The translations under genes and the position numbers were made by a program. A DNA stretch of 63,578 nt, the filler included, from Sanchytrium tribonematis (lineage: Eukaryota): the NCBI GenBank assembly GCA_018985235.1. It is 19 parts of 19 records of this genome, joined end to end, with 100 filler letters (N's around TTAATTAATTAA, not from the genome) between each part and the next. Parts side by side here need not be neighbours in the genome. Positions count along the whole stretch, not along the records: positions 44,175 to 46,523 come from JADGIG010001065.1; 18 more parts are not named here. One strand, written 5' to 3'. The number at the start of each line of letters is the position of its first letter. Positions within the stretch are counted from its first letter, which is position 1. The notes beneath the pieces were generated by a model. It was not told the DNA's origin. It did not search any database and saw only the letters and a list, made by a program, of their open reading frames with translations. Shown piece after piece: positions 594-63,578 of the stretch.

Positions 594-1175
594 TCATCTT
601 TTTGCGTAATTAACTTTGATCTTGTTTCCAAAATATTCTTTGTTATTGGTGTTGCTTTTGGCAACTGTGGCTCTTTGTATATTATCAAAATCAATAAAAG
701 CGACTTTCTTGACTCCAATGTATCTAACTTTGTCAAACCCGGCAAAAGCACTGAAAATAGACTCCAATTGTTCTTTGGTGAGTTCCAAATCTTGCATAAA
801 TAAGTTTTTGTGGGGAGGAATTTTCTCTTCAATCTCCATTTCAAAGGATGTCTTGATGGTGTCGACCTTTTCACCTCTTGTCCATTCAATTCCCAACTTC
901 TCTGAGATTTCTTTGGACTTATTACGTGCAAATTGGATGACCATGGGAATGTTATTCATTGGATAACCTTGCAATGCTCTAATTGCAATTTCTGCATCTA
1001 ATTGGTCTTCATACACAATAAAGGCTTGCTGCTTAAATTTGAGACCACGCCTCTTGTAGATATTGCGAATTTTGCCATATATACTAAATAGCTCCTTCAA
1101 GTCCTCAACATCGAACTTCCCTGGTAAATTTCGTAGATACAGGGTATGATTTGGGACGGTATTACCTGTAATCAT
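594..1175 (-). CDS. U1A/U2B''/SNF-family spliceosomal two-RRM protein
   Basis: PNHTLYLRNL, KQQAFIVY, ALQGYPMNNIPMVIQFA; second RRM PPHKNLF...VAFIDF...IKVNYAK. Start could alternatively be ATG 1271. Confidence 0.85.
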   Translation of the reverse strand: MITGNTVPNHTLYLRNLPGKFDVEDLKELFSIYGKIRNIYKRRGLKFKQQAFIVYEDQLDAEIAIRALQGYPMNNIPMVIQFARNKSKEISEKLGIEWTRGEKVDTIKTSFEMEIEEKIPPHKNLFMQDLELTKEQLESIFSAFAGFDKVRYIGVKKVAFIDFDNIQRATVAKSNTNNKEYFGNKIKVNYAKR

Positions 1176-1758
1176 TATAGGTCCCTTCTTTGTAAATATT
1201 GGAGGACACGGCGGTATTTTAGTTGTATTATTAAAGAGTTCTCTTGGAGGTGGTTTAAGTTGACCGATCATTTGAAAAACTTGAAGGGGAGAAGTAATAA
1301 AATTGTTTAACAAAAAATTTAAACTTTGCGATAACTATTTTATGATTTGTCATTTTAAGCGAATTTATTTAGTATCACATTACTAACTATATCATAGACT
1401 TTTGTGAAAGATTCAATTTCTTGTATACAATTAAACCAAACTGCAAATTCAAATCAATCATATGGGAGAGCTCTTTGAAATCGAGTCTAGTGAAATGCTT
1501 TGAAAATTTTAATATTGATTTAATTTCCAGATTAAGTCTCCAAGTTTATTCCTGTCAATAAAATTTACTCTTCGAACAAATTTCAAGCCCAATGTATCCA
1601 CTTATGCATCGTCAAGACCTTTACACTATGATAACTAGATCACATAAAAAATATGTTTCCAATTTCTGAGCAATGTATTAGTTGTTTGTCTTTCATGTAG
1701 TCTTACTTCCATATTTAGTTGATATAAAACCTCAAACATATTTTTTCTAACAAAGAGT

Positions 1759-2796: not shown

Positions 2797-4681
2797 TCAT
2801 TTTATTTTATAAAATCCTTCATGATAAACTACCAATTCCTGCTGCACCATTAATTGCAAAATTTGAGCGACAGAGTGCTTAAAAGTTTTAAAGACTGGGC
2901 TCTTTCTAGCAGAGACTTCTATTTCTGATAGTTGAGCCTTGACTCGAGTTCTAATAATTGATCGCATGATATTCATGGCAATCTTCAGTTGCGGTGTAAT
3001 TTCTATTTCTTGATGTTCTTGCATTATTATGGTATTATCTTTCTCTAAATTGGAGTCAACAAGTTGCAAGGTATTACCAGATAAATGTAAAACGTCGTTT
3101 TTTTGCCAAAATTTGCAGTACTTTTTTATCATCAAGATAGGTATTTTAAGTTTCTCAGAGAGTTGAGAAAATGTTAGAGTAGGCGATTTCTCAAACTCAA
3201 GTATTATCAATCCTTCGATAGGTAAAACTTTAAATTCTTTGACAGTGTCGTCTATATTTAATTCTAGAAAGTAGGACCCACTTGTAATTGACCATACTAA
3301 TATTTTATGTTGATTAGATTGGGAAAACACTTTCTGGGCTGCTAAGTAAGGATTTTGTATTTGCTGAGGTAAATCAAGCTTGGTTGTAAATTCAACATTT
3401 GGCCAAAACCGCTGAGTTAGGATTTTCACATCAAATTGAAAAGGCGAAATGTTTTTAAATGTATGGCTGAATATCTCGGAGTTCTTAATATCTGCAAGCA
3501 TCTGATCTGAAGTTTTAAGGCAAACCTCTCCTAGACTCGACAAAGTCTGCTTCATAATTTCAACATCTTTTTTTATATTTTGAGATGTCAAGAGCTTGGA
3601 AGATAAAGATCGTTGGTACTCTCTCATAAACCCACCTCTGTCTCCAAATAGTTCAATTATATGCATTAAAAGCGTAGAATCGGTTGGGAATATTTTCTGG
3701 TTCATAGTTTTCACTAAAGCATCGTCACTGAATAAAAAATTAACGATGCAAGTGATTAAATTTTCTCTTTTCATAAGATTGGACCGAAAAAGTGCAACTA
3801 ACGGTTTCGGATTTTGATTCAAATTTGAAAAAAGCATATAAGAGGACAAATAAGTCTTGAGCATTTGATTGGTAGATTTGAGAGGTGATATATTGGCCGA
3901 CAAACTAAATTATACTAAAATACTATTTTAAAATTTCTGCTCTAGCTTCTGTTGGGTATGCTTGTAATTGTAAAAATTCTAAATCTCTATTATGGTAGCA
4001 ATCTAAAATCAGTGGTATTGAATGCAATCTATGTTCTAGAAAGCACTGCTCAAATATTCTATGAATCTCAATTTGTCCGTATAAAAAATTATTCAAAATA
4101 AAATTCAGTTTGTTTTCAAGACCTAATGTAATAGTATCTATAGAAATTCCTTTGACCGCTCTAATTCGTAGATCAAATTGTCTATAAATTTTGAATAAAG
4201 ACTTGACCTCGACAGTAGCCCACTCTTTGCAAGAGAATTGCTTTAATGTAGGAGCCAGTTGCCTTTTAGCAGGAGATTCATACGCTAATTGAATCATTGC
4301 AGTAAAATAGCTTTTAAAAAATTCATTAAGGCCATCAAAGGCATGGACCTTATATGTTTCCAGATAATTAATATCTTCCCAAGTCCAATTTGTGACAGAT
4401 TTCTTCACCATTTCGCCTACTTTGTTCCTGTCAACTAGTAAATTAATCACTCTAGAGTATCTATCAAGTATTCCAAATCTTTCATAAACGTGGTATAACG
4501 TATTTAAAAGAAGAGGGTCTAAATTAAAGCTCAATTTTTCGATGTAATCTACAAATTTAATGAATTGTTTTGATTTTTGATAATTAGAAATTTGCTGCTT
4601 GCTTATGATAATTTTGCTCTCTTCAAATAAGGCATGTCTGACGTATTTTCTCATTAATACATCGGATTCGTTTGAAGCCAT
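2797..4681 (-). CDS. APC2: Anaphase-promoting complex subunit 2 (cullin homology), two exons 4681-3924 and 3904-2797
   Basis: Cullin region LFGDRGGFMREYQRSLSSKLL and VKILTQRFWP, C-terminal winged-helix-like end; the two ORFs join in frame (AEILKYLSANISP) after removing a 19-nt intron. Confidence 0.75.
3905..3923 (-). other. 19-nt spliceosomal intron GTATTTTAGTATAATTTAG
   Basis: GT-AG; removal fuses ORFs 3923..4681 and 2797..3903 in frame. Confidence 0.85.
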
Positions 4682-12033: not shown

Positions 12034-13813
12034 ATGCCCGCTGATCCTCAAAAATTAAAAGAAAAGTACCCAGACTTGCAAGTCGATCAATTGCTAGAAA
12101 AGTTCTACGCTTTGGACACCAAAAAGTCTGGCTCGTTGATTCAAAATGACGCCATCAAGCTCGTTCAATCTCTCCCAGAGAAATACGGATTTGACCAAAT
12201 TAATTCGACCTACAAACAACATGTTACTGGTGGTATGGAAATTGACGAGTTTATCGAAGTCGTTGCTGCTCTTAAACAGCAAGGTGTTCAAAAAAATGCT
12301 GCTGCCGATCCTGAAACCACCGCGCTGGTGGAATACTTCAATCACTTATTACAAGGTGATTCTGAATTAAGCTTGCCTTACCAGTCGGAATCCAATCAAA
12401 TTTTTGATGAAGTGAAGAACGGAATACTTTTGGCTAAAATGGCAAACAAAATTCAACCAAACAGCATTGACATTTCAAAGTTGACAAAAGAGCCAATGAC
12501 TGCTTTTCAAAGAACTGCAAACCAAAATGCAGTTGTTGCTGGTTTAAAGCCTTTAATTAGTGCAAATGTAGGTGCATCCGATATCGAATCCGGAAACTCA
12601 AAAGTATTGATTGGAGTCTTGAGTGCTCTTTACAAATTAGATTTGAGCAACAAAGTTAATATCAAAAAGACTCCAGAGCTATCCAGACTTGCAAAAGATG
12701 CGAAGGAAGATGTCAGCAAGTTGAAAATTGAAGAAGTTTTGGTAAGATGGATCAACTATCATACTGAAAGATCAAATGTTGGAAGATTTTGCGCAAATTT
12801 GAATGACTTAAAAGACGGTGAATTTTTAAGTATTTTGTTTGTAAGATTAGCCCTGTTGAGCAACATTCAATTGGGACCACATCCAATGAAAGAAAATAAC
12901 CCAACAAAACGTGCTGCTATTTTGGTGGACTACGCAGCAAAGTTAGGAGTAACTCAATTTACTACTCCAACTATAGTTGACCAACCCCAAAAAGTTTTGG
13001 TAGCATTTTTGAGCACCTTATTCAGTGTTCATCACTGCATTTTGTCTTTAAGCGAAAACGAGTTTTGCACAACCAACCAAAAATTGTTTCAAGAAAGTGA
13101 CAGAACTGTCAACGGATTCTTAGTTTGGATTAATTCTTTGATCAACAATGGTGCTAATCAAGCTAATGCTCAAATGATTTTGTCTTTTGAAGAATTGACT
13201 GATGGACAAATCTTAGCTCGAGTGATCGATCGAGTATCTCCAGGAACTGTTGAATGGAAGAGAGTAAATAAAAATACGACTAGCAGAATTAAAAAATTAG
13301 AAAACTGCAATTATGTTGTAGATATTAGCAAGAAAATTGGTGTTGTCAGCAATTTGGGCGGAAATGATTTGGCAGATGGAAACAAACCTTTATTATTGGC
13401 ATATTTGACCAAATTGCAACAATTGAACATGGAAAACTTTTCAAAGTCTGTAAAGTCAGAAGCTGAATTAATTGCATGGGCAAATCAATTTGCAAAATTA
13501 GGAGGCAGCAAAGAAGTTTTGGCTACATTCAAAGACTCATTTTTGAATACGAGCAGATTTTATCTTGCTATCTTGGCTGGTTTAAATAAGAGATATGTAA
13601 ACTGGAGTTTGGTTCAAGAAGGATTTGGAGATGACCAAAAGAAGGACAATGCTAAATATGCTATTACTGTTGCTGTTCAATTAGGTATTGCCACATTTGT
13701 AGGTGTTGAAGATTTAACAGAGACTAAATCTAAACAAGTAATATTAATTGATGTAGATTCAGCCTTGGATTGCTGCTATGATGAATGTTCAAAGTGGATA
13801 TGGAAAATATTGA
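12034..13813 (+). CDS. Fimbrin/plastin-like actin bundler (EF-hand plus four CH domains), two exons
   Basis: EEVLVRWINYH, WINSL, KLENCNYVV, GGNDLADGN, NAKYAITVAVQLG; spliced C-terminus ETKSKQIQPWIAAMMNVQSGYGKY* fits the end of CH4. Confidence 0.85.
13738..13756 (+). other. 19-nt spliceosomal intron GTAATATTAATTGATGTAG
   Basis: GT-AG, phase 0; restores a fimbrin-like last helix and gives TGA at 13811 overlapping AATAAA. Confidence 0.8.
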
Positions 13814-17900: not shown

Positions 17901-19445
17901 CAAAAGCCATAAAAGCTGAAAATGAAAAATTGAAGCGTGACAAAGATCACGTTGAACAACAATTACAAACTCAAATTGACAAGTTAACCAATATTAATTT
18001 GTTGCAACAGCAAGTTAACACATTGAAGACTCAACTTCATAAAATGAATGATGATGAGTACGAAGAAACTCTTCCATTTTCACCTATAACAGCCGAAGAT
18101 AAAGGACATGTTATGACCAACACTTTATTTGGAACAAATATTAATTCCTCAACCCAAAAATTGGATGAAGAAAGTCCTGAAGCATTGCAATTAACCCAAA
18201 TCAAAGACTTATTGAAAAATCCCCAACTGGAATCAGAATTATTGAAAAACTTTATCAATTTACGTATCCCAGACATACCACCATTTATCTTGAATCTTCC
18301 CAATATTTGGGATATAACGAGCTCGGAAACTGTTCAATCTAGAAAAGAAAGCTTATTTCCTGCTCATACTTTGTGTGTTTATTTAATTAAAAAGTGGCAA
18401 CTTGGTCTGGCGACAAAATCATTTAATACAATTTTGAAGCAAATTGAAGATAAATTGGAGACTGATAGTTTTAGAACTTTGTCATTTTGGACTTCTAATT
18501 TGTTTGAAATGTCTTGCATCGTTAAAAGTGTCAAGCTGCAAAAAAACAGAATGACCAAGAGTCTTGATGCTCAAACTGCAAATTTGAAGAGAGATGTAAC
18601 TGATTTAAGCGAAAGTGGTAAAGAAATTTTAAAAATTCAAAATGAAATGGAGAGAATATTTTTAAAAGGTTTTCAAAAATTATATTCATTTTTAAGACAA
18701 AGATTTCAGAAATATGCAATTCCTTCAATTTTGGAGAACCAATCACTACCTGGCTTTGTCACAAAGGATGACGGCGGATTTTTTCAAAGACTCGGATATT
18801 CGTCGTCTGAAAAACATTCTGTTGAAGATTTAATCGAAAATCTAACAGAAAATGTTAGAATGCTTAAGGGTTACGCCATGGATGATTTGATTGTTGCTCA
18901 GATATTCGGTGAAATAATCAGACTATTGGGCATTGAGGCATTCAATCATTTGTTGATGCGTCGTGGTTTTTCAACATGGAAAAGAGGTTTATTAGATTTA
19001 TATAGGAATGCAAATTCAGTACAATGTTAGCCGTGTTACTGAGTGGGCTCGAAAAAATCAAGTTGCGCAAGCGAGTGACCATTTTGAAAAATTGATGCAG
19101 TGTGCAAAATTAATGCAACTTTCAAAGGCAATTCCTCCAAATCACGAGCTTTTTATAGAAGATTTATGTGAAGTCTGTCACCAACTAAGTGGCTCTCAAA
19201 TCCAAAAATTGCTGACTTTGTACACTGCTTCCGAATTTGACGCACCAATCCCCAACAAGTTGATTAATCAAGTAGCCCTTAAAATTAAGGACACTGATGT
19301 GATTTTGTTAGAGGTTCCAATTGAGTCCGACTTTTCATGGTTTGATAAACCAGATTATCGAAAAGTTAAAGCTATTTACAAGTATCTTCCACGAGACTTG
19401 GAAGATCATTCACCATTGACTTTAATGTTATTTAAATATGCCTAG
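14906..19445 (+). CDS. MYO2: Class V myosin (motor, IQ repeats, coiled coil, DIL domain), two exons
   Basis: GESGAGKT, NDNSSRFGK, DIFGFE, QLRACGVLETIRIS, IQ motifs; spliced DIL motif FNHLLMRRGFSTWKRGMQIQYNVSRVTEW. Confidence 0.95.
18987..19005 (+). other. 19-nt spliceosomal intron GTTTATTAGATTTATATAG
   Basis: Removal restores the conserved WKRGMQIQYN and joins ORFs 14906 and 19008. Confidence 0.93.
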
Positions 19446-24821: not shown

Positions 24822-25986
24822 ATGTTTGAATTTGACAGCTCGGACGACTTAAGCGAGCAATCATATAGTGAGAAGGATTTAAATTCATTACTTCATGAAA
24901 TAGGGACAAAATTACCCACAAAAGAATATAAAATATTAGAATTATTAGGGAAAGGCGGTTTCGCTCAAGTTAGGCAGGGTATTCACGTCAAAACAAACGA
25001 GACAATTGCATGTAAACAGCTTCTACGCAATAAACAGGACAGCAACCGACTATACCAAGAAATATCTATTTTAAGTGCAATAAGCACACATTCTTCTGTC
25101 TTACCATTATTAGAAGTTTTATATAATAGTAGTGAAATATGGCTGATATTTCCACTCGCAGAAAAGGATTTATTTGATTTTATTAGTCATAATGGTAAAT
25201 TACCGGAGGATTTGGCAAAATATTATTTTAAAACTATTGTTGATATTATCGCTTATTGCCACGCTAAAGATATTGTTCATCGGTATATTTTGTTTATTTA
25301 GGGACATAAAGCCTGAGAATATTATGGTGGATAAACGAGGAAATGTAAAATTAATAGACTTTGGATTTGCTGGTGTTGCAAAGAATTCTAAAAAATTAAA
25401 AACGTTTGTTGGATCTCCAGAATATGCAGCACCAGAGATTCTAAACTGCCAAGAATATGATGGAACAAAAGTGGATATATGGTCGCTTGGTTGTATATTA
25501 TACGTCATGGTAGTTGGCAAAGCGCCATTTCAAGGAGAACCATTCAGGATTTACGAGAAAATAATGAATACTGACTTTGAGCTGCCGTCGGATCTCAGTC
25601 AGGATTGCCAAAATCTTATAAGGAACACTTTGAAAAGAGATGCAGATCAGAGATTGACAACAGATGAAATAGCTCGACACCCATGGATGGCAGATGACAA
25701 ACATTCTATAAGTTACAAAAGAGCACTTGTTGATTCAAATTCGATACAAGCGGCCAAAGAACTTTTAAGCGCCAAAGAAACTGAACGGACGTCGAGGCCG
25801 AGTCGCATATTTACTGTAGCTTATCTTTTGCAAGAGAAGAAATTGAATGAAGAAATATTAATGTCTCCCAAGGAGAAATACAAGACTTTTTTTAATGCTC
25901 GAAATTCATCCAAATCACTAATAATAGAAGAGCCCAAAGAAATACTAAAAACCACAATTGTTGATATAATAAATGAGGAAGATTGA
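24822..25986 (+). CDS. CAMK-group (SNF1/MARK-like) Ser/Thr kinase, two exons
   Basis: LGKGGFAQV, IACK, spliced HRDIKPEN, IDFG, TFVGSPEYAAPE, DIWSLG. Confidence 0.9.
25283..25301 (+). other. 19-nt spliceosomal intron GTATATTTTGTTTATTTAG
   Basis: Splits the Arg codon of the HRD motif (CG|G); removal restores HRDIKPEN. Confidence 0.95.
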
Positions 25987-30276: not shown

Positions 30277-30315
30277 CACGTCAAAGAAATGGCTTAAAAT
30301 GGGTAATTTATAGTT

Positions 30316-31844: not shown

Positions 31845-33095
31845 TTTAAGCATATTGGCAAATACCAATGAAAAAAGAGGATATCATAAAAACAGGATTC
31901 ATTACACATATGGGTCATTTTGTGTATAAAAACACGCCATTTGGACTTATGAATGCAGGCAAAACGTTTCAAAAGATTATGGATCTAGTATTTTCAGATT
32001 ACCTTAATCATGAGGTTTTCTGCTACCAAGATGATATATTAATTGCCTTGGATACATAAGAGAGACACCTAGAAATGATTAACAATGTATTCGACTTGTT
32101 AGAAAAATATAATTTAAAGGCATTTTGCAACAAGTGCACTTTTATGTTGAGTGCGACTTATTTGGGATTTTATTTGGATGGTCAAGTTGTCAAACCAGAT
32201 CCAGACAAAGTCAAGCCTATTTTAGATTTTGAATCGCCAACAAACATTAAGCAAATGCAAAGATTTTTAGGTATGGCTAATTACGATCGAGGTTTTGTTC
32301 AAAAATTTGCTATCATTGCTCAGCCAATGTATAAGTTACTTCGCAAAGGAGAGAAATTTTTGTGGGGAAAAGAACAGAATGAGTCATTTGAAAAGATCAA
32401 AGAGTTGATCAAATATCCCATCTTGCTTAAACACGCAGATTTCGAGAAACCATTTACATTAGAAGTGGATGCATGTGGTCATGGAGTCGCAGCAATATTA
32501 GAACAAGACGGACATATTATAGCTTTAGCTTCAAGATTGCTAAAAAATAATGAATTAAGATGGCCAGTTGGAGAAAAAGAGCTTTATTCAATTGTTTTCA
32601 CGTGTACAAAATTTAGATTTTTCATTGATACAAAGAACGACACTATTTTAAAAACAGATAACTTGAGTTTGAGTTATTTAAAGACAATGAAGATTAGTGC
32701 AAAGATTAGTCGATGGGTAATGTTCTTAATGGAATTCAATTTAAACGTATTTTATGTACAAGGATCTCAAAACAAGGATGCAGATCTATTAAGTAGACTA
32801 AATGACAAACTAGAAGATGTTTGTGCAGCGTTCACCAGAGGACAGAAGCGAAAGGCTGAAATTAAGGAAGCCATTGATTACAAGGCTGAATCAGGAAGTA
32901 TTGAATCAGATGCAGACAATTATTCCATAGAAAACACGTCCTTCGAAAATCAAACAAATGATGCTGAATTGACAGTAGATGAAATCAAATCGATGCACGA
33001 AGAAATGTAACATATTGGCATTGACAAAATTTACAAGTACCTAAGAGAAAGAGGATATCCAGTCACGAAAAAGAATTGCGGAGAAGCAACTTATT
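31845..33095 (+). mobile_element. Degenerate Ty3/Gypsy pol fragment (RT, RNase H, start of integrase)
   Basis: PFGLMNAG, YQDDILI, FLGMANY, VDACGHG, EKELYSI, TDNLSL, ADLLSR; in-frame stops. Confidence 0.92.
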
Positions 33096-33169
33096 GATTT
33101 GCAATTTTGGATCAAACATGGGACAGAAATCAAATGCGTTTTTAAACAAGGCACCAGCGTGGTTAAAAT

Positions 33170-33400
33170 CTAACACCCAAAGTAATTAAATAAATTACTT
33201 ACTTGGAATATGGATATATCGTGGACGCAACCTGGATACCCAGCTAAAACATCTAGAATCTTATAGTTAAAATTACACAAAACTTGTGCTTTAACGCAAA
33301 TATCTTTATCTTTGTCAATATAATCAAACCATTGATCACTATCTGGTGTAATAACGTAGATATAAGTACAATCTACAGCCCCAAATACACCATATGGGAT
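33170..33400 (-). mobile_element. PIF/Harbinger transposase catalytic-core fragment
   Basis: GVFGAVDCTYI...AQVLCN...ILDVLAGYPGCVHD, the DDE_Tnp_4 pattern. Confidence 0.85.
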
Positions 33401-33780
33401 ATTATCCAATTCAATTAAATGATATGGTATTAGTACCAAACCCAGATGCTAAAACTAAAATTGATAAAGAATTTGTAGGACCATATAGGGTTGTAGAGAT
33501 TTTTCCCTACGGAAATATACTAACTGATAACGGAGGCCGATTCAATCAAAACCAAGTTAAAAAAATACAAGATAAAATTACAAGTGAAAATGTAGAAAAC
33601 ATCAACGCTCTATACGAACTACCGATGACAAAATCTGGTGGGAGTGTCGCACCCAACACGATAAATCAAAGCGTGATTGGATGTTATTTAGATCAAAATG
33701 ATCTAATTAATCTAGTCAATTCAAAACAAGATCCAAGTCCTCTAATAAGGCTTGGATCCCAATCAGATGATGGCGCATGC
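33400..33780 (+). mobile_element. Gypsy integrase C-terminus (GPY motif), purine-rich tract and probable start of 3' LTR
   Basis: DMVLV...FVGPYRVVE; GGTGGGAG followed by TGT at 33645. Confidence 0.65.
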
Positions 33781-33949
33781 TTAATTTTGGCCTATTTTTA
33801 CTTAATATACATATATCATCTGCATAGCAGAGTATCCAAGTCCCATCTACGCAAATATCGCATCATGTATTGATGAATTTTTGCAGAAACCAAATTGATT
33901 TCTAGGTATATCGAACCAATATATTCCTGTATACTTTTGCGAAGTGTTC

Positions 33950-34062
33950 AAGTGTTGTATTTGGTGGCATTACTGACTGGAATAAGTGGATCTATCTTAC
34001 TTACAATTTCTAATACTGTTTCTTTGCTTAGTCTGTAAGTTCTGACACAATAGTAGGCATTG
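33950..34062 (-). pseudogene. Harbinger transposase N-terminal remnant
   Basis: Hand translation RTYRLSKETVLEIVSKIDPLI matches the Harbinger R(M/L)SKET motif. Confidence 0.6.
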
Positions 34063-34522
34063 TTGTGATGTTAGGCCCTCTGGTGTTTTCACTCATCATA
34101 TACAAGATTATACTCAGTACAGCACATTTAATAGCAAAATGCATTATGTTTGAAGGGTTAATGAAGTAAATACACTAAAATCGATTAAAAAAATAAATAA
34201 GATTGAATTCACGCCTAAATCTANNNNNNNNNNNNNNNNNNNNNNNNNNNNNNNNNNNNNNNNNNNNTTAATTAATTAANNNNNNNNNNNNNNNNNNNNN
34301 NNNNNNNNNNNNNNNNNNNNNNNATTTCGACATGGTATATCGTAAGCTGGGAACCTGCCAAGCAGCAAACACTGCCAAATTTATACCAGTCAATGTGATT
34401 AGAGTAGGATGAAGCCTAAATGTTTTTTGGATAGAGCGAAACCATTGGTAATGATATAAACTCCAGTTTGTACTTCCCGCAAATCCAACCGGGACATTTT
34501 TTTCCTAAAAATCAACAGGACG

Positions 34523-36801: not shown

Positions 36802-38010
36802 TCCGGGGGGGAGTTGAGTATACTGTCGTAATTACTCACTCAAGTCCCCCGGGGGAGTTGAGCTGGTAAAGACTTTATTAAATGGATCTTTCAAAATATC
36901 ATTAAACTGGTACAAAGCAATGCTAAAAAGAAATGGATTGGTTAACAGATTAACTACACAATCCACTAAAAAAGACAATATGGAATTAGCAAATTCAGCT
37001 GCACAACACATTTATGATGTTAGAAAGAATCTGCAAATTATACGGAAGATAATATTTTATTTATGGATGAAACTGCTATTTGGATGGATGTTGGGAAACC
37101 AAAAACTGTTGCAAATGCAGTCCCTATTTTTAGTGGTTTCAATGAAAAAACAAATATTACATTTATGAATAGGAAAAATGGATCCAAAATTAAACCTTTT
37201 ATTGTAAATGCAACAACAAGAGCAGCTAAATTAGACACTATTGAGATCAAAGAAGATTGTGTTATGGGATATACTAAAAAAGGATGGGTTACTCAATCAT
37301 TATTAATCAAATATCTGAATTACATTTTATCATTTGGAAATGCATTGCTTATTTGGGATCATTGTTCAGCACATGGAGCTTCTAGAACAGAAAATATTAT
37401 GAGTGAATAGTTAGCAAATAAGAAAATCAAATGCTTATATGTTCCAAAAGGTGCAACTGGATATTGCCAAGTAGCAGATGTGGCTATTATTAGGTCTTTA
37501 AAGTGTAATATCAGAAAGTCTATTGAAAACTTTTATACTGAACAATTTATGGGAAAATTCTGAATTGTCAAAAGTACTAATAAAACCACATATTGGTAAT
37601 TTGAGAATATGGATTGTAGAACATTGGAATCAAGTTCCGCTTTCCATTATTGAAAATGGTTTGAAAACATGTCACTACAGTGAAAATATTGGAGATTTGC
37701 ACATGGCAAAAGTGAATGACCTGAGTATTTAATATTAATTTAGATATAGATTTTTTGTTTGACGAAGTCATGGCTTCTTTAGCTGGAGGTCCAGCATATT
37801 CTGGCCCATTTGATTTTTGCGATGATATTGAGATTACTGATGAAGGAATTCCAGTTTTGACTTTGAAAATCAAACTGGAGAGCCAGAAGTGATGATTTAT
37901 TCATTGTTAAGTGAAGAAGAATAAATATATTGATTTGATAGAACATTTATTAATATGGGGGGGACTTGTATTTTCATAGTCAAAATCCTATCCAATTCCC
38001 CACCAGGGTT
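36802..38010 (+). mobile_element. Degenerate pogo/Tigger-type (DDE_1) DNA transposon
   Basis: MDETAIW, LLIWDHCSAH, VPKGATGYCQVADVAI; frameshifts and stops; C/G-run motifs on both sides. Confidence 0.85.
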
Positions 38011-39264: not shown

Positions 39265-40961
39265 ATCGGGCAAGACTATTGGCTTAAAAGGTGGGCCACA
39301 GCGTACATATCAGTTAATTCATTTAATGATGATGGTTTAGAAGAGAAGAAAACTGTGGATGTCGACTTTTATTTGATTAGCTATATTGCAATAGGACTCG
39401 GAAATATTTTAGTGCAACTACTTTTTTTGGTAATACAATTTTTTGCTTCCATCAAAGCTTCTAGAGAAATACACAAAGTCCTTTTACAGCGAATTTTACG
39501 AGCCCCTGTCTCATTTTTTGACAAAACACCGCTGGGTAGAATTATTAATCGATTTTCGAGCGATATTCAAGTCTTAGATAGGGAAATAAGTTCTGTCTTA
39601 CGCAACTATTTATACGATGGAATTGGTGCAATTAGCATTCTGTTTTTAATCAGTTCAATTACTCCTTTATTTTTAATTGCTGTGATTCCAATAATATTTA
39701 TGTTTTACTATGTCTCATCTTATTATTTAAAGACATCTAGAGAACTTAAGAGATTAGACAGTATCACCAAATCACCAATCTATGCTCAATTTAGTGAAAC
39801 GCTCGCAGGATCTCATGTTATTCGAGCATTCCAAAAGGAGTCGGAATTTATTGCTCAAAATTATACCAAAATTGATACAAATCATCGCGCGTACTTTTAT
39901 TTGTGGGTTTGCAATAGGTGGCTACAAATAAGGACTGATTTCCTCGGTGCTGTTGTTGTTTTTTGTACGGGGCTAGCAATTTTATTGAGCAGTGGGGAAA
40001 TTGATGCTGGTTTAGCAGGATTGAGTCTATCATATGCTTTGACATTTACTGATTTGGTCATGTGGCTTGTCAGATATAATGCCTTGGTGGAAATGAACTT
40101 GAATTCTGTTGAGCGAGTTCGAGAATATATGCAAATTGAACAAGAAGCACCCGCAATCGTCAAATCAGCAAGACCCCATCAAATTGGCCATGGTCTGGAG
40201 AAATTAGGTGCACAAATCTCACAATACACTACGTACCAACTTCTTCACCAGTTTTAAAAGAATTGACATTTTCAATATCATCTCAAGAAAAAATTGGAAT
40301 TGTTGGAAGAACGGGTGCTGGTAAAAGTACTTTAGCTCTGGCTTTCTTTAGATTTGTAGAACCCACAATTGGAAATATTGAGATAGATGGCATTAACAAC
40401 AATTCTATTGGACTTCAAGACTTGAGAAGTGCGTTGACGATTATTCCTCAGGAACCAGTATTATTTAAAGGTACAATCCGATCAAACTTAGACCCTTTTA
40501 ACAAACACGACGACATGCAATTATGGAATGCATTAAAAAGAGTCCATTTTATTAATGAGACTGAAGACGACTCAAGAGAAATAACTTTGGATGTACGGGT
40601 TTTTGAAAATGGTAATAATTTCTCTGTAGGGCAAAAACAATTGCTTAGTTTGGCCAGAGCACTGATCAAGTGTTCCAAATTAATTATAATGGATGAAGCA
40701 ACAGCCAGTATCGACTCGGAGACTGACACTAAAATTCAACAGACCATCCGTACTGAATTTAAAGATTCTACAATTTTATGTATCGCTCATCGATTGAGAA
40801 CTGTCATTGACTTTGATCGTATTATGGTACTTGATCATGGAGAAATAGTTGAATTTAATACTCCATTTACACTGATTATGAAAGATAATGGGTTGTTCAT
40901 GAAAATGTGTAAAGAATCTGGAGATTTTGATTTTTTGAAAAAAAGAGCCACAAAAAGCTAA
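39265..40961 (+). CDS. ABCC/MRP (Ybt1/Ycf1-like) transporter, C-terminal half, 5'-partial, frameshift at 40174-40177
   Basis: FFDKTPLGRIINRFSSD, NSVERVREY, GRTGAGKS, NFSVGQKQ, IMDEATAS, IAHRL. Confidence 0.92.
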
Positions 40962-42973: not shown

Positions 42974-43273
42974 TTATTCAGGTCCTCCACTCCATTGGCA
43001 ATCTGATTTTATGCCGGAATAAGCCGGCGCACACAGATAATCTCCCTTATGATTGCAGAACCCTTTCGACGTAGTGATTGATGGATCACTTTTCCCACAA
43101 AATCCGAATGCACTGCAACATTCACTTGGATGGCAAACAAAGACAACATTTGAGTGATAACCCCTAACTTGCTTTATGCTATTGAGTCCGCAATATTTCT
43201 TTGGGTGATATCTCTTAACTAACTTTTCAGTTGTTTTGGTTGTAGCAGCTGTGAGCAGTACTGTGAAGATCAT
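42974..43273 (-). CDS. Small secreted hevein/CBM18-type chitin-binding protein
   Basis: CG...C...CCSAFGFCG...C; short hydrophobic leader. Confidence 0.8.
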   Translation of the reverse strand: MIFTVLLTAATTKTTEKLVKRYHPKKYCGLNSIKQVRGYHSNVVFVCHPSECCSAFGFCGKSDPSITTSKGFCNHKGDYLCAPAYSGIKSDCQWSGGPE

Positions 43274-43487
43274 TGAAAGGGGGGATATAGGATGTAATAA
43301 ACAGGGGGGGGGGGGGGTAAGATCGTATATAAACGATGCGAAGCCAATGAGGAACCGTTTTGCACTTGCTGGTCTTGCTCACACCAATCAATCTATTAAT
43401 TTAATAATCTACTAATCAGATGATAAATTTGGAGTACTAGACTACATGCATCGCTTTTCAAAGTACAATTAATTGGATATTAATTTA

Positions 43488-43742
43488 TTAAGTGTGTGCT
43501 TTTTTATAACAAACTGACTTCGTACCAGAAAACTGTGGTTGGCAATTAGCATTGGTATAAAGCCACTTTAGGCCACAGTATCCGTATTTACTACATGACA
43601 GTTTTTCTGCACACATAAATATGGCATTGATAGGATAAGCACCATCTCGCTTTTTACCTTTGACGTTGTTGGGTCCGCACATACCGTGACGATTTTTGTA
43701 GTATGCTGGAGCAAGAGCATTTACTAGAACGGTGAATATCAT
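43488..43742 (-). CDS. Small secreted hevein/CBM18-type paralog
   Basis: CGP...C...SCSKYGYCG...CQPQFSG..SVC; tandem with the previous gene. Confidence 0.75.
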   Translation of the reverse strand: MIFTVLVNALAPAYYKNRHGMCGPNNVKGKKRDGAYPINAIFMCAEKLSCSKYGYCGLKWLYTNANCQPQFSGTKSVCYKKAHT

Positions 43743-44205
43743 GTAAATATGGAAAACCTTCTCGTTTTTATGCTTTTTAAAATCCTTTAGCCAATAAAAC
43801 CAACTTGGGAAATCTGATGAATGTCTGAGACTCCAATCAGTATTATAGAGATAAATAGTCTATCAGACGACCCAAAACGAATGTTTAATCTGTTTGAATG
43901 GTCTTAAAAGACATTTGGCTCTCACTTCATTTCATCTTTGCAAATTTCAAGGAGTAAACACATCAACAACAAATCTCTTTCAAAATGCCTCTTTATGAAT
44001 TACTCGTCATTACCCGTCTAGATACTACCAAACCACGATTAGCATCTCTCTTAAAATCCACTGCCATGCAAATANNNNNNNNNNNNNNNNNNNNNNNNNN
44101 NNNNNNNNNNNNNNNNNNTTAATTAATTAANNNNNNNNNNNNNNNNNNNNNNNNNNNNNNNNNNNNNNNNNNNNTAAATTGAACGATTCAGAATAATTTA
44201 TTGCT

Positions 44206-45286
44206 TTAAAAACAGCATCTCCACCAAGATTTTTTGGGTTCACTAACTTTTTCCTCCTCTACCGCTTTTTCCACATGGGGCGTCGTTTGCTAAATGAGAA
44301 AAAAATACTTGCAAATCTTTGAAGGCTTGGACTTTGAGCCAATCAAAGTCTAAATTAAGTTTAGTCTCCTTCGAAAATCCACTATTTTGAGTATTTGTAG
44401 ATATAGTGCTTCCGCCACCATTGCTTTTAAGCATGTTATCGAATAATTTGTATAAATATTGGTAATCTGGATCTTCCTCAAAAGCAAGCCTTCTAGCATA
44501 GGTCATGTACTCCGACAATTCTTTAGGTAAATTTGCACATAGCTCAGAAATTGGGGTTGCTTGTTTTTTCTCTCCAATTTTTTCGTACTTTTGCCTATTG
44601 GTAGCAGCTTTAAGACCCTGCCACGGCAATGAGCCTCTCAAAAAGTAAACAAAAACATGTCCCAGTGCCTCTATATCATCTCTTCGACTCTGTTCTCTAC
44701 CCAAATGTGTGTGAATAGACATATACCTAGCAGTGCCACTAAGGGACTTACGCTCCCTGTAAGGAATGTGTTGCTTAGTTCTTGGATCTCTGTAATGTTT
44801 GCACATTCCAAAATCAAGCAAAAATACAATATGTTGGGAAGAACCTCCTGGTCTTCCAATTAAAAAATTATCTGGTTTTATATCTCTATATATTAAATGT
44901 TTGTTGTGAAGCAATTCAATTCTTTTAATCATCTGTATAGCTAAGTACGCCGTTGTTTGTATGGTGAATTGCCTGTTGCACATATCAAATAGATCCTCAA
45001 GACTGGGTCCCAAAAGATCCATGACAAGTACATTATGAACGCCTTCTTGTCCAAAGTAATAGCAACTCGCTATCCCTTCGCATCCTTGTAATAATTTATA
45101 TGTTCTATATTCATCGCGTAGTTGGGGTGCATCGCTTTTTCTATGTTCAAATTTAATAGCGACAAATTGATTATTTGTTAAATTTATACCCTGGTAAATG
45201 ACTCCAAAAGAACCCTCCCCAATTCTTTTAACCACTTTATAATGTATACCTATTATAGAATTTGTAATTTGGTTTTGATTGCTCAT
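44206..45286 (-). CDS. Casein kinase I, Yck1/2/CK1-gamma type, two exons, ending WWRCCF
   Basis: [45 protein letters not shown]; spliced tail ends in the Cys-Cys palmitoylation motif. Confidence 0.95.
44290..44308 (-). other. 19-nt spliceosomal intron GTATTTTTTTCTCATTTAG
   Basis: Removal gives [27 protein letters not shown], the family-typical CC end. Confidence 0.88.
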
Positions 45287-45527
45287 TATTTAGAAAAAAA
45301 TCAAAATTTCAGCAAACGTGTTTCACTAGCCACTTCAAACGATGATCTTTCTCCAAGTGCCAAACTGTTGCATATTTCACAAAACGCTTTTTTAGACACT
45401 CGGTTATTATTATGAAATTATAGTTTAATATAGCGTTTCTGGCAATTGCTATATTACTTCGAAATTGATTTGTTTCAATAGTTTCGATATAAAATTGACT
45501 TAAATTTTTTTAAACTAATTAATTTAT

Positions 45528-46523
45528 TCAAACAGGTGCAATATCAAATAGCATAGAAACACTTTCACCGTGGTGGATTCTTCTTATAGCCTCACTCAAA
45601 AGCCCACTCACGTCAAAGACTTTCAATTTGGGACAACGATCCAAATGTTTAACTTGGGGAACAGAATTGCTTACAATTATTTGATCCAATGGAGAACTGT
45701 TAATTAGATCTATCGCATTGGCACTAAATATTCCATGGGTTACAATTGCATAAACTTTGGAGGCCCCGCTCTCCATTAACAAATGGGCCGCTCTGGTAAT
45801 GGTTTTACATGTGCTTCATTAGATAGAAATACTCTGCCATATCGTCTACTATAATGCAAGTTTTATTTTTAACTTCGCCCACTAGCAGCATATTTTGCCT
45901 AGATTTCGTTGTTTTTTTATGAATCAAAACAAACTCAAGCTCTAAATCCTCTGCTATTGCAGTGGCTCTCTTAGCGCCACCGGCATCCGGTGAGCATATT
46001 ACAGCATTTTTATAATCTTTGATACCTTGGATTTGATGTATCAGCAAAGGCTTGCAATAGAGATTGTCTACCGGAATGTCGAAATATCCTTGAAACTGTG
46101 CATCGTGAAGATCAAGTGTTATAATGTGATCACATCCTGCTGTACTTAAAAGATTCGCAATCAAAGTCCCACTTCTTGCAGTCCATCCACGATAATTAAA
46201 TGGTAAATTTGTAACAGGATCTAGTTCATCTCGACTGGCTGAATTTGAATCCGGTTGCATACCAGATGCCACTCTATGCCTTTCAACATCTTTCGGTAAT
46301 CTTGCATAAGGTCCGTCTGGCTGTCTCGAGTAAAAGAAGTGTGGTATCACAATAATCACCTTGTTAGCAGAAGCAATTTTGCATGAGTGAATCATTATCA
46401 TTAATTCAATAAACGCATCATTTACGTTTTCGGGACAAGTTTGTACAATATAAACCTCTTGGCCTCGAACAGATTGTTTAATTTCAACATTTGTTTCTTG
46501 ATTCTTAAATTTAGTCGATACAA
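45528..46523 (-). CDS. Ribose-phosphate pyrophosphokinase (fungal type with insertion after RQPD), 5'-partial, two exons
   Basis: DLHDAQFQGYFDIPVDNL, SPDAGGAKRA, spliced VDDMADTCKT, THGIFS. Confidence 0.93.
45814..45832 (-). other. 19-nt spliceosomal intron GTATTTCTATCTAATGAAG
   Basis: Removal restores the PRPP-binding loop DDMADT; contains CTAAT. Confidence 0.93.
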
Positions 46524-49218: not shown

Positions 49219-49836
49219 TTAGTGCTTGAATTCATTCGCTTCAACTGCTTGTGTACCAACTGCAGGATCAAATTTAAATGCTTTGCCAGTAAAATCTGTA
49301 GCTATTTGTACGCATTGAAATGATAGTGGATCTGCTGTTGCACTTTGATGCCCACAAATAGCACCGCCTTCAATTCTAATCTTGTCAATTCCTGTCAAAG
49401 TAGTCATTTGGGTCCATGCTTGTTTAGAAGAATAATCAACTTGACTGCAATATACGTTGGAATCCTTATTTCTCACGCACATAAATGGATTGAGCACGGA
49501 CATTCTTATTTCAACCGCACTACCACTGATCTCTTTGATAATGAATACGTCAGTTTTAATAAGCCCTTTTTGTTCACCACATGCGATATTTCCAGCTGTA
49601 CCAACCATGCAAATAGTACTCACACGAAAATCAACCGAAATAGGCTTAAAATCAATATTAAATGTTTTTGGTTTCAAGGTTGAGAAATCACTTCCCGTTG
49701 CACCACATTTTAGCTGTCCATTGCTGACAGTACAAGTAATCTTTCCATGAGTTACTGTTAATGCGCCATTAGCAGATTCATAAGAACCGACGCTTGTTGT
49801 TTGAGGAATGGAATAGAGCGTTGAAGTGAAGATCAT
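49219..49836 (-). CDS. Secreted Cys-paired beta-repeat protein (tectonin-like), paralog A
   Basis: Repeated (I/M)C-x-V-x4-(I/V)-x-C units; MIFT leader. Confidence 0.65.
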   Translation of the reverse strand: MIFTSTLYSIPQTTSVGSYESANGALTVTHGKITCTVSNGQLKCGATGSDFSTLKPKTFNIDFKPISVDFRVSTICMVGTAGNIACGEQKGLIKTDVFIIKEISGSAVEIRMSVLNPFMCVRNKDSNVYCSQVDYSSKQAWTQMTTLTGIDKIRIEGGAICGHQSATADPLSFQCVQIATDFTGKAFKFDPAVGTQAVEANEFKH

Positions 49837-50008
49837 CTAACAATGGAAGTACGCGCTCCTTTTATGATCGAATTCAGGATCCCTAGACCTGTCCAACTTC
49901 TGTTTTCCAATCAAAAAAGACTCAAGATCTATTACCAGACTGAAGAAACCAATCAAGAACTTCTGATTCCTTAAGGAACTAATGATTTTTAAAATAGTTT
50001 ATTGTTTC

Positions 50009-50647
50009 TTAAAATTTGGTTTCTTTTGGTTCCAATTCACCCACAGATGGGTCAAATTTAAACGGTGTCTTTTCATTCTTGGTATCATCTGTTCCAATTG
50101 TAAGGCATTGATAAGTATCCTTATCTGCATTTTCCTCCTCATGCCCGCAAATCTCACCATTTTCAATTCTAATCTTATCAACTTTTTTAAATTTCTCCAT
50201 TCTAGTCCATTTTTGATTGCTACTAAAGTCAGTTTGACTACACCATACTTGAGAATGTGAATTTCTCAAGCACATGAAATTCCAAAATACGGCAAATCGG
50301 ATATCTGTGACACTGCCACCACTAATTTTGTTGACTAGAAATGTAGCATCATCTGTTAAACTAGTTTGTGTACCACAGGCAATATCGCCTTTAATTCCTA
50401 CGAAACAAATATCATTTCCTTTGAAATCAAGTGATTTTGGTGCAAAATGAATATTGAGTGTTTTCATATTCAGATTCGTATCTGTACCACAACTTACTGC
50501 TTTATCTTTCACAGTGCATGTCACTTTATCATGATTTACGGTATACGTACCATCAATGCAAGTGAAATTGCCTTGAGGATTCGTTGATAATAATCCTGGT
50601 TTATCTTCACTAAGTGGATATCCGTATAGGGTTAGCGTGAAGATCAT
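50009..50647 (-). CDS. Secreted Cys-paired beta-repeat protein, paralog B
   Basis: Shares DKIRIE.G.ICGH and FKFDP.VG with paralog A. Confidence 0.65.
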   Translation of the reverse strand: MIFTLTLYGYPLSEDKPGLLSTNPQGNFTCIDGTYTVNHDKVTCTVKDKAVSCGTDTNLNMKTLNIHFAPKSLDFKGNDICFVGIKGDIACGTQTSLTDDATFLVNKISGGSVTDIRFAVFWNFMCLRNSHSQVWCSQTDFSSNQKWTRMEKFKKVDKIRIENGEICGHEEENADKDTYQCLTIGTDDTKNEKTPFKFDPSVGELEPKETKF

Positions 50648-56395: not shown

Positions 56396-57830
56396 AACCA
56401 CTAAATTGATTTCCAGTGGCAATGAATACTTGTAATTGAGATGGGAGTACCAATGATCCATTTAAATGATTATCCAATAAATGGATTTGATTTAAATTGG
56501 CTGATAATGCCGTAATTCTACCATTTAATTTGCAGTGATCTAGACTGAGATATCTTAAATTACCAGACAAATCTAATAATTGATATTTTCCATAAGAATA
56601 TCCAGTATTTAAACTCAAAGAAGTCAATGAATTTGGCAAATTTGGAAATGGACCTGTAAATGCATTTGAATCATATCCAGCACTCACTTGATTTGGAGAG
56701 AATTTTAATGGTCCAGTTAATCCCAATGATGGCACATCGAGTACTTGAATCAATCCCATGGATCGGGGAAGTGTTCCGAAACAATTTGAATTTGCCAAAT
56801 AAATTTCAGTCAATGTATTTGGCATATCCCAATTGGATAAATTGGTGTTCACTAAAGTATGTTGCACACTGATACGGGTTAATCGAGGTGGCCAATTAAT
56901 TGTGATTAAATCACCTGTTAATGGATTGAATTCGAAATTTGCAAATGTGAGTGAATTTGGCAAATTATTGGGAATTTGACCATATATATTGTTAGAGTTG
57001 ATGGATATAGCATCTATACTACTTGGCAATGATGGAAATGGGACATTTAAGAGGTTATCATGGATATCAATGGTCTGAATGCCATTTGGAAATGGGAGTG
57101 TCCAATTGGTCAATTTGTTGTATGTCAGAGAGACATAGGTCAATTGGGATGGGAGGAGGGGTAATTTACCACTTAATTTATTGCTTCCTAGTTCTAAAAT
57201 ATTTAATGCACCTGTAAAAGTGGGTACATTTCCAGTAAATTGATTGTCATTCATTTTTAAATGTTGAAGAGAAGTTGGCCAATTTTGAGGCATTGCCATT
57301 GCAATTTGATTGTTATTCAAAATCAATTCAACTAATTGAGTGCATGATGTAAAATCAGATTGAATTGTGGCTAATTGATTGTAAGACATTGAGAATCTGA
57401 TAATTTGAGAATTTAGATTCGGTAAAGTGCCTGAGATTTGATTGTGATCTGCATAAAAGAGTGACAAAGCGTTGGGAAATCTATCTATACCTCCACTGAG
57501 TAGATTGTTGGATAAATAGATATTCTGTAGGGTATTTGGAAGTCCGGAAATGGAGCCAGTGATTTGGTTGTTTGAAATGTCCAAAGTGACCAGATTGGGT
57601 GGCAACTTGGACCCGTCAAATACTCCAGTAAGTCCCAGACCACCCCATTGAATAAATGTAATGGTATTGGATGAACAAACAACACCAGAAACTGTACCAG
57701 TGCAGCAATTTGATTGGATTTGATTGTAAATGGCGGATTGAGCTTGCTGTAATCCGAGAGATGTAGCAAAATCAAGTAGTTTAGTACAATCTTGTACCAC
57801 TGCAAATGACTGAATCGTAAGCAGTAGCAT
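56396..57830 (-). CDS. Secreted leucine-rich-repeat protein, 3'-partial
   Basis: MLLLTIQSFA leader, DC...NCC...GVVC cap, many LxLxxNxLxGxLP repeats. Confidence 0.9.
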
Positions 57831-58027
57831 GTTAGAGTCAAAAAAGAGACATCAGCAGCTTATAACTTGATTTTGTGATAGGTGATTTGTCAACTAATCA
57901 GAATATTCTAAATTGGCTATCAATTGGCTTCAACTGCCATTTGTACGTGTCAGATTTGAATTGACTTTGATTTATGGAGTTGACTCTCGTTGCAGGGTCA
58001 AATTTAAAATCTTGTTTGAATCAAAAA

Positions 58028-61251: not shown

Positions 61252-63578
61252 ACCGTGTTTGCTTTCAACACAGATTCAATAAATTGCTGTTTTGGTATTT
61301 TCCATATAAATTCATAAATGAGTAGTTCTTTAATAAACTGGTTGCCACTTACTTGCACTAATTGGATATTATTCATAATTTGAGACTGTAAATCCACTAC
61401 ATCAGAATATTCTGAAATCATTTGAAATACTTGTAATTCTTCATCATCTCCAAATAATGTCACATTTTTACATATATTCAGCATGTAATTAATAATAGAT
61501 TGTATGAAATCAACCAATTCTTGATTAAAATTGGGTTTTACTTTAATATCATGATTAAATACATCGACAATGATTTCCATAAATACTTCAGAATTCCTTG
61601 TGGTATTGGCAAATAATAATGAGAGTGATTTAATGACATATTGGTGCATCTGGTTTACTAATAATTCATCTAAATGGCTATAAAATAAAGAATAGTCATG
61701 TTTTAATATTTCCTGTAAATATGTCAATTTTGATTTGAATTTGATGAAACTAGATTGAATTAATTGAGTAGTTTGATTGAATTTATCACCCACATCTTGA
61801 ATATCTACGCATTTCTTAACAGCATCGAGCACTAAATGATTCTGCCATTCATCTGTTTCAGATTTCACAAGGTGAATCAATTCTTGCATTAATGAATATT
61901 TTTGGACACAGGCATCCATTGCATTCCATATATCTACCACTAAAGTATTTGTGATTTGTATATCATGCTTCCAAGTCACATCATTTCGTGCTTTAAGCAA
62001 TAATTCATGAATTTGTTGCAAATATTCTTCAAGCATTTTTTGAGACATTTCATCCATTGGCAGAATAATATTATTATAAGTTGTGCATACCTTTCTTAAT
62101 ATTCTAATGCAATTTTGAATGGACTCGCTCTTTTTATAAAAGTCAATTATAAATTGTGGCAATTCTAAATGATAATTCAACATTGGTTTCAAATTGTAAA
62201 ATAATAGTATTTCACGCATATTCACGAGTATATCTGTATTAATATTCACTTTAATTGCATTTTCATACATTATTGAGGGTGCATCAGAGAAAACAGTGCT
62301 CAAAAATGGTTGTTGCTCAATTTCCATTTCTAAAATAGTCAATAATGGAACACTCAGATTGATGCTTGTAATAGATTCCATTCTTTTCTGCCATTCAGCC
62401 CATTCTTTATCTACTAATGTGATGACATGCTTTATAAATTCGTCGCACTTTATAATAAATCCATCTGTGTCTGCGGGAATTAAAATAAATCTTTTGACAT
62501 TATTTCTCAATTCTTCTGCTTTTCGCTTAAATTCATAAGCTTCCATTACATATCCCATAACGGGTGGCATATCCCCCATATTATCACGGCAATTTTTGAA
62601 TCTTAAATACAAAGATTGGACAGAATCATGAAATTCTTGAAATAATTTCACAGAGAATGATTTCAAAGCATCATTCACCATATTTCTATTAAGAAACGAA
62701 TCCATTATCTCTAAAACTCTGAATTTCATATAAATATCTGCATATTCATCGCAATTGCTTACAATAATGGCCGCCAAACCACGATCCAATGAATGAACAG
62801 AATTGAAAAACTGCAAATAGTCATCTGCTTTGACGGATAAATCTAAAATATCCACTGATTTGCCCTTGAGATCATCAAATAGTTTGTTGAATTGCTGGAA
62901 GGAGGAAACGATGACCCGATTGTAAATTTCATTTTTCAAACCTCCCAATTCAATCTTTTCCAATTTTGCGTAGACTTGCTGCGACTCGATAACTTCCTGT
63001 ATGAATTCCAGTCTTTTTACAAACTCACTGCATTTATGATAAATGTGATGCGAAATGTCAGGAAAGCATTTATGCAAATATTCAATGTATTTTAATATAA
63101 CGGCTTTCAAATACATCAAACTGGTCATGGCATCGTAATAATCAAGTTGGAAATAATCCTGTTGCAAGATATTTTTGATTAAAATGACCATTTCGCTGCA
63201 AGTGGTAGTTAAAATCGCATCAAACATCGCCATTTGATATCCTTCTTGAAAACTAGGCATCATCTCCTGAAATGCCTTTGGAATCATTGCTATTGCATAT
63301 TCAATTTGTTTATTTTCAGGTGAGTTGCTTTTTAATATGTTTAATTGCTCTTCTGCTAATTTTAATTTCTCAGATATATCCAATATTTTCTTGAATTGAG
63401 ACATCTTTGTATCAATATCCCTTAATGAGTAATGAAATGGAGAAGACTGTACGAGTTCCTTCACTTTAGAATACTCAGCACTGGTATATTTTGCATAAAT
63501 TTCTTGATATACCAATTTGGTCTCATCCCAATATGCCAATTCTTCACTTAAAGTATCTCTAGAGGCATAAATCTTTTG
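61252..63578 (-). CDS. Dynein heavy chain N-terminal (DHC_N1) region, probably axonemal; internal fragment
   Basis: Open across the whole contig; EELAYW, DMPPV.G, YNNII, W-spaced helical tail typical of DHC_N1. Confidence 0.65.

Follow-up and report, generated by a model that had tools for sequence, protein, structure and literature searches.

How could a spliceosome recognise an intron of 19 nucleotides, and which of its two ends would fix the place of its branch adenosine? The question is raised by a ribose-phosphate pyrophosphokinase (PRS) gene of Sanchytrium tribonematis, which lies in a stretch of 63,578 nucleotides (the window) made up of 19 contigs, 18 of about 2.3-2.4 kb and one of 19 kb, joined by N-linkers. 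The G+C content is 31-37% in each contig, and the gene content is eukaryotic and compact. Six conserved genes of the window are interrupted by tiny GT-AG inserts of 19 nt, the six tiny introns of the first-pass annotation. We put the probability at roughly 80% that these inserts are ordinary introns of the major spliceosome near the minimum size, with an invariant adenosine at position -6 (the last nucleotide being -1) as their predicted branch point.

Source of the DNA and its 19-nt inserts

The host is a little-studied fungus that parasitises algae. Sequence comparison places the DNA in a sanchytrid fungus, with Amoeboradix gromovi as the nearest named relative. When 21 casein kinase 1 (CK1) sequences were placed in a tree, that of the window formed one long-branched clade (100/100) with those of A. 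gromovi and three ENA entries, and this grouping, together with the PRS and CK1 identities, places the host within Sanchytriomycota. The upstream PRS exon is 79% identical to A. gromovi EP00835_P002764 and 77-80% identical to three ENA/NCBI proteins, compared with at most 55% over the full length to named fungi; CK1 is 92% identical to that of A. gromovi and at most 73% otherwise. The two genes adjoin at 44243-46521(-), and both are found on one A. gromovi contig (NODE_163 p6 and p4); in the ENA relatives, the contigs with the two genes agree in length. About six introns in 51 ORF pieces (45,353 nt) is a sparse content beside that of Blastocladiella emersonii, whose 10,031 genes contain 19,375 introns (PMC9730499).

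A metagenome scan for sanchytrid DNA returned only five distant PRS loci (41-58% identity), none of which has an intron at the PRS site, so that an ancient origin of this intron is not shown. Of two viral scans, one gave a single distant locus and the other none, and a scan of prokaryote genomes gave two distant CK1 contigs only. Contigs L007 and L008, filed in bacterial MAGs, encode CK1 relatives (62% and 51% identity) and are probably eukaryotic contamination.

The six inserts, with the branch adenosine predicted for each, and the two PRS exons are as follows.

45814..45832, minus strand: 19-nt GT-AG intron, phase 2, in a fungal PRS5-like ribose-phosphate pyrophosphokinase gene; predicted branch A at 45819
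45833..46521, minus strand: PRS upstream exon (Pfam PF13793, PF00156), its 5' end lost at the contig end
45528..45813, minus strand: PRS downstream exon (Pfam PF14572, positions 97-183 of 184)
44290..44308, minus strand: 19-nt intron, phase 0, in a casein kinase 1 (Yck-like) gene; TCAT at 12-15; predicted branch A at 44295
25283..25301, plus strand: 19-nt intron, phase 2, at HR|D of a Ser/Thr kinase gene; TTAT; predicted branch A at 25296
18987..19005, plus strand: 19-nt intron, phase 1, in the DIL domain of a myosin V gene; TTAT; predicted branch A at 19000
13738..13756, plus strand: 19-nt intron, phase 0, near the end of a fimbrin gene; TGAT; predicted branch A at 13751
3905..3923, minus strand: 19-nt intron, phase 2, in a cullin/APC2-like gene; TAAT; predicted branch A at 3910

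In their ends and in the frame restored by removal the inserts resemble U2-type introns: all six are GT-AG, and removal regains a conserved protein, in the register of a homolog or a Pfam profile, in five of the six genes, the cullin-like gene regaining an open frame only. U12-type introns have the donor RTATCCTT and the branch sequence TCCTTAAC; the corresponding ATCC at positions 3-6 is found in none of the six, whose donors are GTATTT-like.

With its insert removed, the PRS gene regains DDMA-D-T. The D-T is present in 88 of the 89 PRS homologs that run past the motif (120 were listed, of which 5 end within 15 residues and 26 fall outside the pattern). Four of the five short homologs are sanchytrid-like proteins that all change to E at the intron site, as expected from read-through of GA|G, and the junction aligns to a homolog with a score of 134 when spliced and 79 when unspliced. 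The Ser/Thr kinase regains HRDIKPEN (110 spliced versus 47 unspliced), and D follows the H-R/G motif in 131 of 149 kinase matches. Seven of the 149 stop or diverge directly after H-R, a weak hint that some of them may share the intron position; no close ortholog of this kinase was present among the best 150 matches. In myosin V, exon 1 covers positions 1-29 of the Pfam DIL profile, and exon 2 takes up the match at 31 and carries it to 103. The spliced fimbrin tail aligns without gaps to P0249 (62 versus 39 unspliced), while the spliced CK1 tail ends in WWRCCF, resembling the C-terminal CC motif of fungal (blastocladian) homologs, and CK1 orthologs read into the same intron site. In the cullin-like gene, where the downstream exon is so called from features only, removal joins 259 and 368 open codons and read-through meets a stop immediately; Pfam recognised neither half. 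The CK1 and PRS inserts recur unchanged in a contig of about 120x from a DNA run (X1), and are thus not assembly noise; this contig differs from the window elsewhere by four bases and one 6-nt gap, and is not independent since it possibly comes from the same sample.

A motif common to the six inserts

The minus-strand sequence of the PRS insert is GTATTTCTATCTAATGAAG, with a full CTAAT at positions 11-15. Across the six introns, positions 12-15 read TAAT, TGAT, TTAT, TTAT, TCAT and TAAT, just as first annotated, so that T12, A14 and T15 are each present in six of six and T-N-A-T occupies positions -8 to -5. Positions 4-11, which were said to vary, are in fact not free: T is found at positions 4, 6 and 7 in five of six, and position 5 is never G. 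The donor consensus is GTATTT, with A at position 3 in five of six. The introns sit at 0.40-0.97 of the coding length with no 5' bias, the PRS value of 0.67 being an underestimate because the 5' end of that gene is cut. All six are 3n+1 long, which may reflect the way they were found. The set comprises six well-founded introns from 45 kb of ORFs. In-frame introns lacking a stop could have escaped notice, although no string of 18, 21 or 24 nt passed a filter on motif and composition.

A pattern seen in six AT-rich examples, with columns chosen after the fact, might be chance. The interior bases are 60% T (54/90) and 29% A, so T12 and T15 alone are weak, and when positions 3-17 were permuted within each intron 200,000 times, at least three invariant columns arose in 0.011 of shuffles. 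Any invariant A column, however, appeared in 0.0058 of them, and T-N-A-Y at any common offset in only 1.5e-5; the signal is carried by the A plus the combination, not by T12 and T15 alone. As background, 17 of the 310 19-nt GT..AG strings of the window contain T-N-A-Y. A motif-blind scan, which asks if removing a GT..AG string tightly rejoins two long frames, rescued frames at 5 of these 17 strings and at none of the other 293 (Fisher p = 2.7e-7), and no enrichment was seen at any of 27 further lengths between 13 and 40 nt (lowest p 0.051). With six ortholog tails (described below) also in agreement, coincidence is extremely improbable. Nor do we expect that the inserts go unspliced, whether they stem from misassembly, from lesions in pseudogenes or from frameshifting, or are introns that stay in the RNA. 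In microsporidia, the splicing of short introns is below 20% (PMC6349667), and a plain one-nucleotide frameshift does occur in an ABC transporter gene of the window. Against this, all six inserts share GT-AG ends, a single length and a single motif, they interrupt conserved genes whose exact registers are restored by removal, and at least four relatives have interruptions at these sites too, all of which makes unspliced inserts very unlikely.

Of the five frame-rescue positives, three belong to the six introns (those of the kinase, CK1 and fimbrin genes lie beyond the tight cut-off), and two are new candidates:

37725..37743, plus strand: candidate intron in a degenerate DDE-transposase-like region; TAAT at 12-15; rejoins 74 and 48 open codons
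38876..38894, minus strand: candidate intron upstream of a Cys-rich zinc-finger-like ORF; TAAT at 12-15; rejoins 50 and 68 open codons

The DDE_1 match near the former is weak (E = 0.0024), and the ORF by the latter has weak zinc-ribbon matches only. Both lie in a degenerate segment resembling a DDE transposon. Since they were first spotted through the motif, they enlarge the set and add no proof; if they are real, a mobile element carries host-type tiny introns. Other strings were rejected. In the ABC transporter gene, the frame near 40175 is restored by one more base in a run of C, not by an intron; this one-base frameshift, within 40140-40257(+), is an assembly error or a lesion. The in-frame 15-nt string at 45235-45249 encodes a conserved GIHYK, and 19-nt motif strings at 3118, 17465, 33673, 34148 and 62430 are antisense, lie within intact coding sequence or bring no gain of frame. 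At 1723-2401(+), a zinc-knuckle-like ORF overlaps a second frame, and a 16-nt GT-AG string without the motif (2165-2180) would link the two.

Predicted position of the adenosine in relatives

Intron-unaware gene callers translate into introns, which makes the protein tails of orthologs usable as a record of intron sequence. We looked at 13 read-through tails from PRS, CK1 and fimbrin of relatives, the introns being back-translated from protein and not read from DNA. Six distinct tails (seven proteins) have A at -6 and a pyrimidine at -5. Predicted introns of 19 nt are those of P0001 (A. gromovi PRS), P0004, P0122 (identical to P0244) and P0245. The predicted CK1 intron of P0243 is 21 nt long with its A at position 16, and that of P0241 is 25 nt long with its A at position 20; both are at -6, and each lies within a CTAAC-like motif (the P0241 tail back-translates to A-C-N-A-A-Y-G-T-A-G). 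Three tails end in L-T-stop, where T-8, A-6 and C-5 are forced if the stop is the acceptor TAG, an assumption made for three of the tails. For three tails greater lengths are feasible as well, and were discounted by visual comparison of the frames. Another five of the 13 tails are uninformative because the stop comes too early. The fimbrin tail of P0247 has T at -6 at all feasible lengths (12, 18 and 27 nt), and would be compatible with a -6 rule only if the intron is longer and contains the stop.

As the predicted 21- and 25-nt orthologous introns keep the A at -6, the fixed quantity is likely to be the distance to the 3' AG. It is likely that the A is anchored to the 3' end by a rule of the form yUnAyNNAG, with position -5 appearing as T or C across the clade; the A is at -6 in six of six window introns and, by prediction, in six distinct tails at lengths of 19, 21 and 25 nt. 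The earlier statement that A14 is fixed 6 nt from the 3' end is thus extended to longer predicted introns, with P0247 as the misfit.

Two other accounts accept the introns and differ over the A. A ruler from the 5' end could set the branch A at position 14, -6 then following from a fixed length of 19 nt. All eight window inserts (six introns and two candidates) are 19 nt long, so that the window by itself agrees with either anchor; moreover, the conserved A residues of myxozoan and dicyemid introns leave the AG as length grows (PMC13644364), and P0247 does not fit -6. The longer CK1 introns predicted for P0243 and P0241 speak against such a ruler, which we regard as unlikely. Alternatively, T-N-A-Y might be part of a longer acceptor motif that U2AF or another protein recognises (compare TTTCAG of C. 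elegans), with branching elsewhere or at several adenines. U2AF65 and U2AF35 are kept in A. gromovi, the predicted U2 pairing is weak, and most of the introns have further adenines upstream. However, the motif fits the branch consensus WCTRAY of intron-poor eukaryotes (PMC2483917), relatives have CTAAC/ACTAAY at that place, and in the CK1 intron A14 is the sole A between A3 and the acceptor A18. An acceptor motif of this kind therefore seems a rather poor prospect, and the first-pass reading of A14 as the branch adenosine, which the CTAAC-like motifs of relatives favour, is the one we prefer.

Just three bases separate A14 from the AG, leaving no room for a polypyrimidine tract between branch site and acceptor, as had been pointed out; the lack of a 3' pyrimidine tract is ordinary among fungi (PMC2483917). 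When the six introns are paired with the canonical U2 sequence, from which that of the host may differ, 3-5 of 6 possible pairs form, and only T12 and T15 are paired in all six. Position 13 is a pyrimidine in three of the six, so the pairing is predicted to be weak. Rfam gave no snRNA match in the window.

The arrangement that we propose for donor, U2 and lariat is drawn from general knowledge of splicing. GTA(TTT) would act as a weak donor, read over approximately positions 1-6, and positions 9-15 would form a short imperfect helix with the branch-pairing sequence of U2, leaving A14 bulged and two linker bases between the donor reading and the helix. Attack of A14 on G1 would give a 14-nt lariat loop, and the AG five bases downstream of A14 would be the acceptor, so that a single fused 3' signal, yUnAyNNAG, may serve as both branch site and acceptor. 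Recognition of the AG, and of the U-rich bases that precede the branch site, probably remains with U2AF. Because only T12 and T15 pair with canonical U2 in all six introns, proteins and the fixed spacing probably compensate for the weak helix. The short spacing from branch to AG might further make Slu7 and Prp18 dispensable, which fits with both being missing from the A. gromovi table discussed below.

Spliceosome genes and comparison with known systems

The window itself encodes one snRNP protein:

597..1334, minus strand: U1A/U2B''-family snRNP gene; best PDB matches U1-A (E 1.4e-20) and U2B'' (E 8.5e-19)

Its first RRM is four residues shorter than in both human proteins. Further gene content was taken from A. 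gromovi, not from the window organism, by searching for spliceosome labels in its eggNOG table (3,755 rows, in the supplement of PMC8371127, which gives 3,757 annotated peptides). The table lists U2AF65, U2AF35, BBP/SF1, Dbr1, U1-70K, Luc7, SF3B1, Prp8 and Brr2, along with Cwc25, Yju2, Isy1, Prp16, Prp17, Prp22 and a METTL16-like protein. Together with the U1A/U2B'' gene, this indicates that the lineage encodes a major spliceosome, and the table does not show the loss of most spliceosomal proteins that is seen in microsporidia and mikrocytids. At the level of gene loss, the expectation for U2AF65 and BBP is not borne out, both being annotated. BBP/SF1 is present in A. gromovi as two adjacent ORFs (NODE_116 p11 and p12), as an unrecognised tiny intron would cause. 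Slu7 and Prp18, whose loss had also been suggested, gave no match in the 3,755 rows by gene name, KO or KOG label, the KO and KOG numbers being those that we take to be theirs. Labels for U1C, SNRNP27 and PRP40 are likewise absent from these rows, the proteome is intron-unaware and split genes may escape such a search, so the absence of Slu7 and Prp18 argues only weakly for loss. Slu7 is unnecessary where the distance from branch to 3' splice site is at most 9 nt (PMC10158995).

The closest parallel proposed for the -6 adenosine, convergence with the ciliate Stentor coeruleus, appears sound on comparison. Its 15-16 nt introns also have a GUA start, a U-rich body and a branch A at -6, which is position 10 when the intron has 15 nt and 11 when it has 16, and Slu7 and Prp18 are reported without a match, as in the A. 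gromovi table (PMC9505925, available part). Stentor has 8,806 introns, no strong branch consensus and a loop of 10-11 nt (PMC9505925), whereas the sanchytrid is a fungus with few introns, a visible yUnAy, a predicted loop of 14 nt and predicted lengths of 19-25 nt. A fixed short distance from branch to AG without a pyrimidine tract is also described for Yarrowia lipolytica, Trichomonas and Giardia (Irimia and Roy 2008, PMC2483917). In Yarrowia, ACTAAC plus 2 nt plus AG puts the A at -6, as in the window introns, but its introns are long (median 204 nt) with a strict ACTAAC, while those of the window are 19 nt long with a degenerate motif (PMC2483917).

Encephalitozoon cuniculi is, like the sanchytrid, a reduced fungus-related parasite with few, very short GT-AG introns and a TAAY-type motif (PMC3629993, PMC2483917). 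Its introns, however, are 22-76 nt long with TAAYTT and stricter motifs, and its spliceosome is heavily reduced (PMC3629993, PMC2483917); the annotation of A. gromovi keeps U1 proteins, U2AF and most catalytic-step factors, and the window introns are found at 40-97% of the coding length. Introns of the same length class and narrow size range occur in two unrelated lineages, the chlorarachniophyte nucleomorphs (18-21 nt), for which the available text of PMC6009652 reports no discernible branch adenosine, and Mikrocytos (16-17 nt; PMC10245619). Myxozoans and dicyemids, parasitic opisthokonts too, share short introns (20-27 nt), a GTa donor and a retained U2AF, but in myxozoans and Dicyema the conserved A drifts from the AG with length (PMC13644364), while that of sanchytrids is predicted to be constant at -6.

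The -6 geometry is thus a known convergent solution, the apparently new part being a host phylum whose introns seem to have gone unnoticed. No description of sanchytrid introns was found in the literature covered, which leaves out most subscription journals, and in the available part of the sanchytrid genome paper the word "intron" occurs only in a reference title (PMC8371127). Sanchytrids may hold the shortest fungal introns. A fuller picture, in which these introns are the shortest in Fungi (modal length 19 nt) with the fused signal yUnAyNNAG, the spliceosome is nearly complete minus Slu7 and Prp18 in parallel with Stentor, intron gain is ongoing (the transposon-like region with two) and part of the gene loss claimed for the phylum consists of split genes, is possible, and we offer it tentatively.

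That the -6 geometry occurs in a zoosporic fungus as well as in a ciliate and a yeast points to a common lower limit on the spacing from branch to acceptor. With sanchytrids, introns of 19 nt whose branch motif can be read would be available within Fungi, the group nearest to the yeast and human spliceosome structures, so that the sterics of U1, U2 and U6 on a minimal intron could be modelled more readily than in ciliates; whether short spacing goes with loss of Slu7 and Prp18, as predicted, would be open to comparison. There is also a consequence for annotation. Sanchytrid proteins were predicted by TransDecoder on genomic contigs (PMC8371127), a procedure unaware of introns, and intron-bearing sanchytrid genes are therefore truncated or split in EukProt; the A. 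gromovi PRS, CK1 and fimbrin proteins end at the intron. Presence and absence calls for the phylum call for intron-aware annotation.

Several other features of the window were observed. A chloride-channel ORF at 9918-11690(+) starts 30 nt past the RPS26 stop and has no ATG ahead of the first helix predicted in it; it may begin at a non-ATG codon or have a shortened N-terminus. Two dynein genes, for an axonemal light chain (PF10211; 57971-58513(+)) and for an N-terminal piece of a heavy chain (61254-63578(-)), occur in a lineage described with a non-motile, reduced flagellum. Degenerate retrotransposon-like pol fragments containing stops are located at 26868-29257 and 31845-34223. The regions 42974-43859(-), 49219-50647(-), 29358-30315(-) and 56397-57851(-) encode paired chitin-binding small proteins, paired secreted-looking proteins and two leucine-rich-repeat surface-type proteins.
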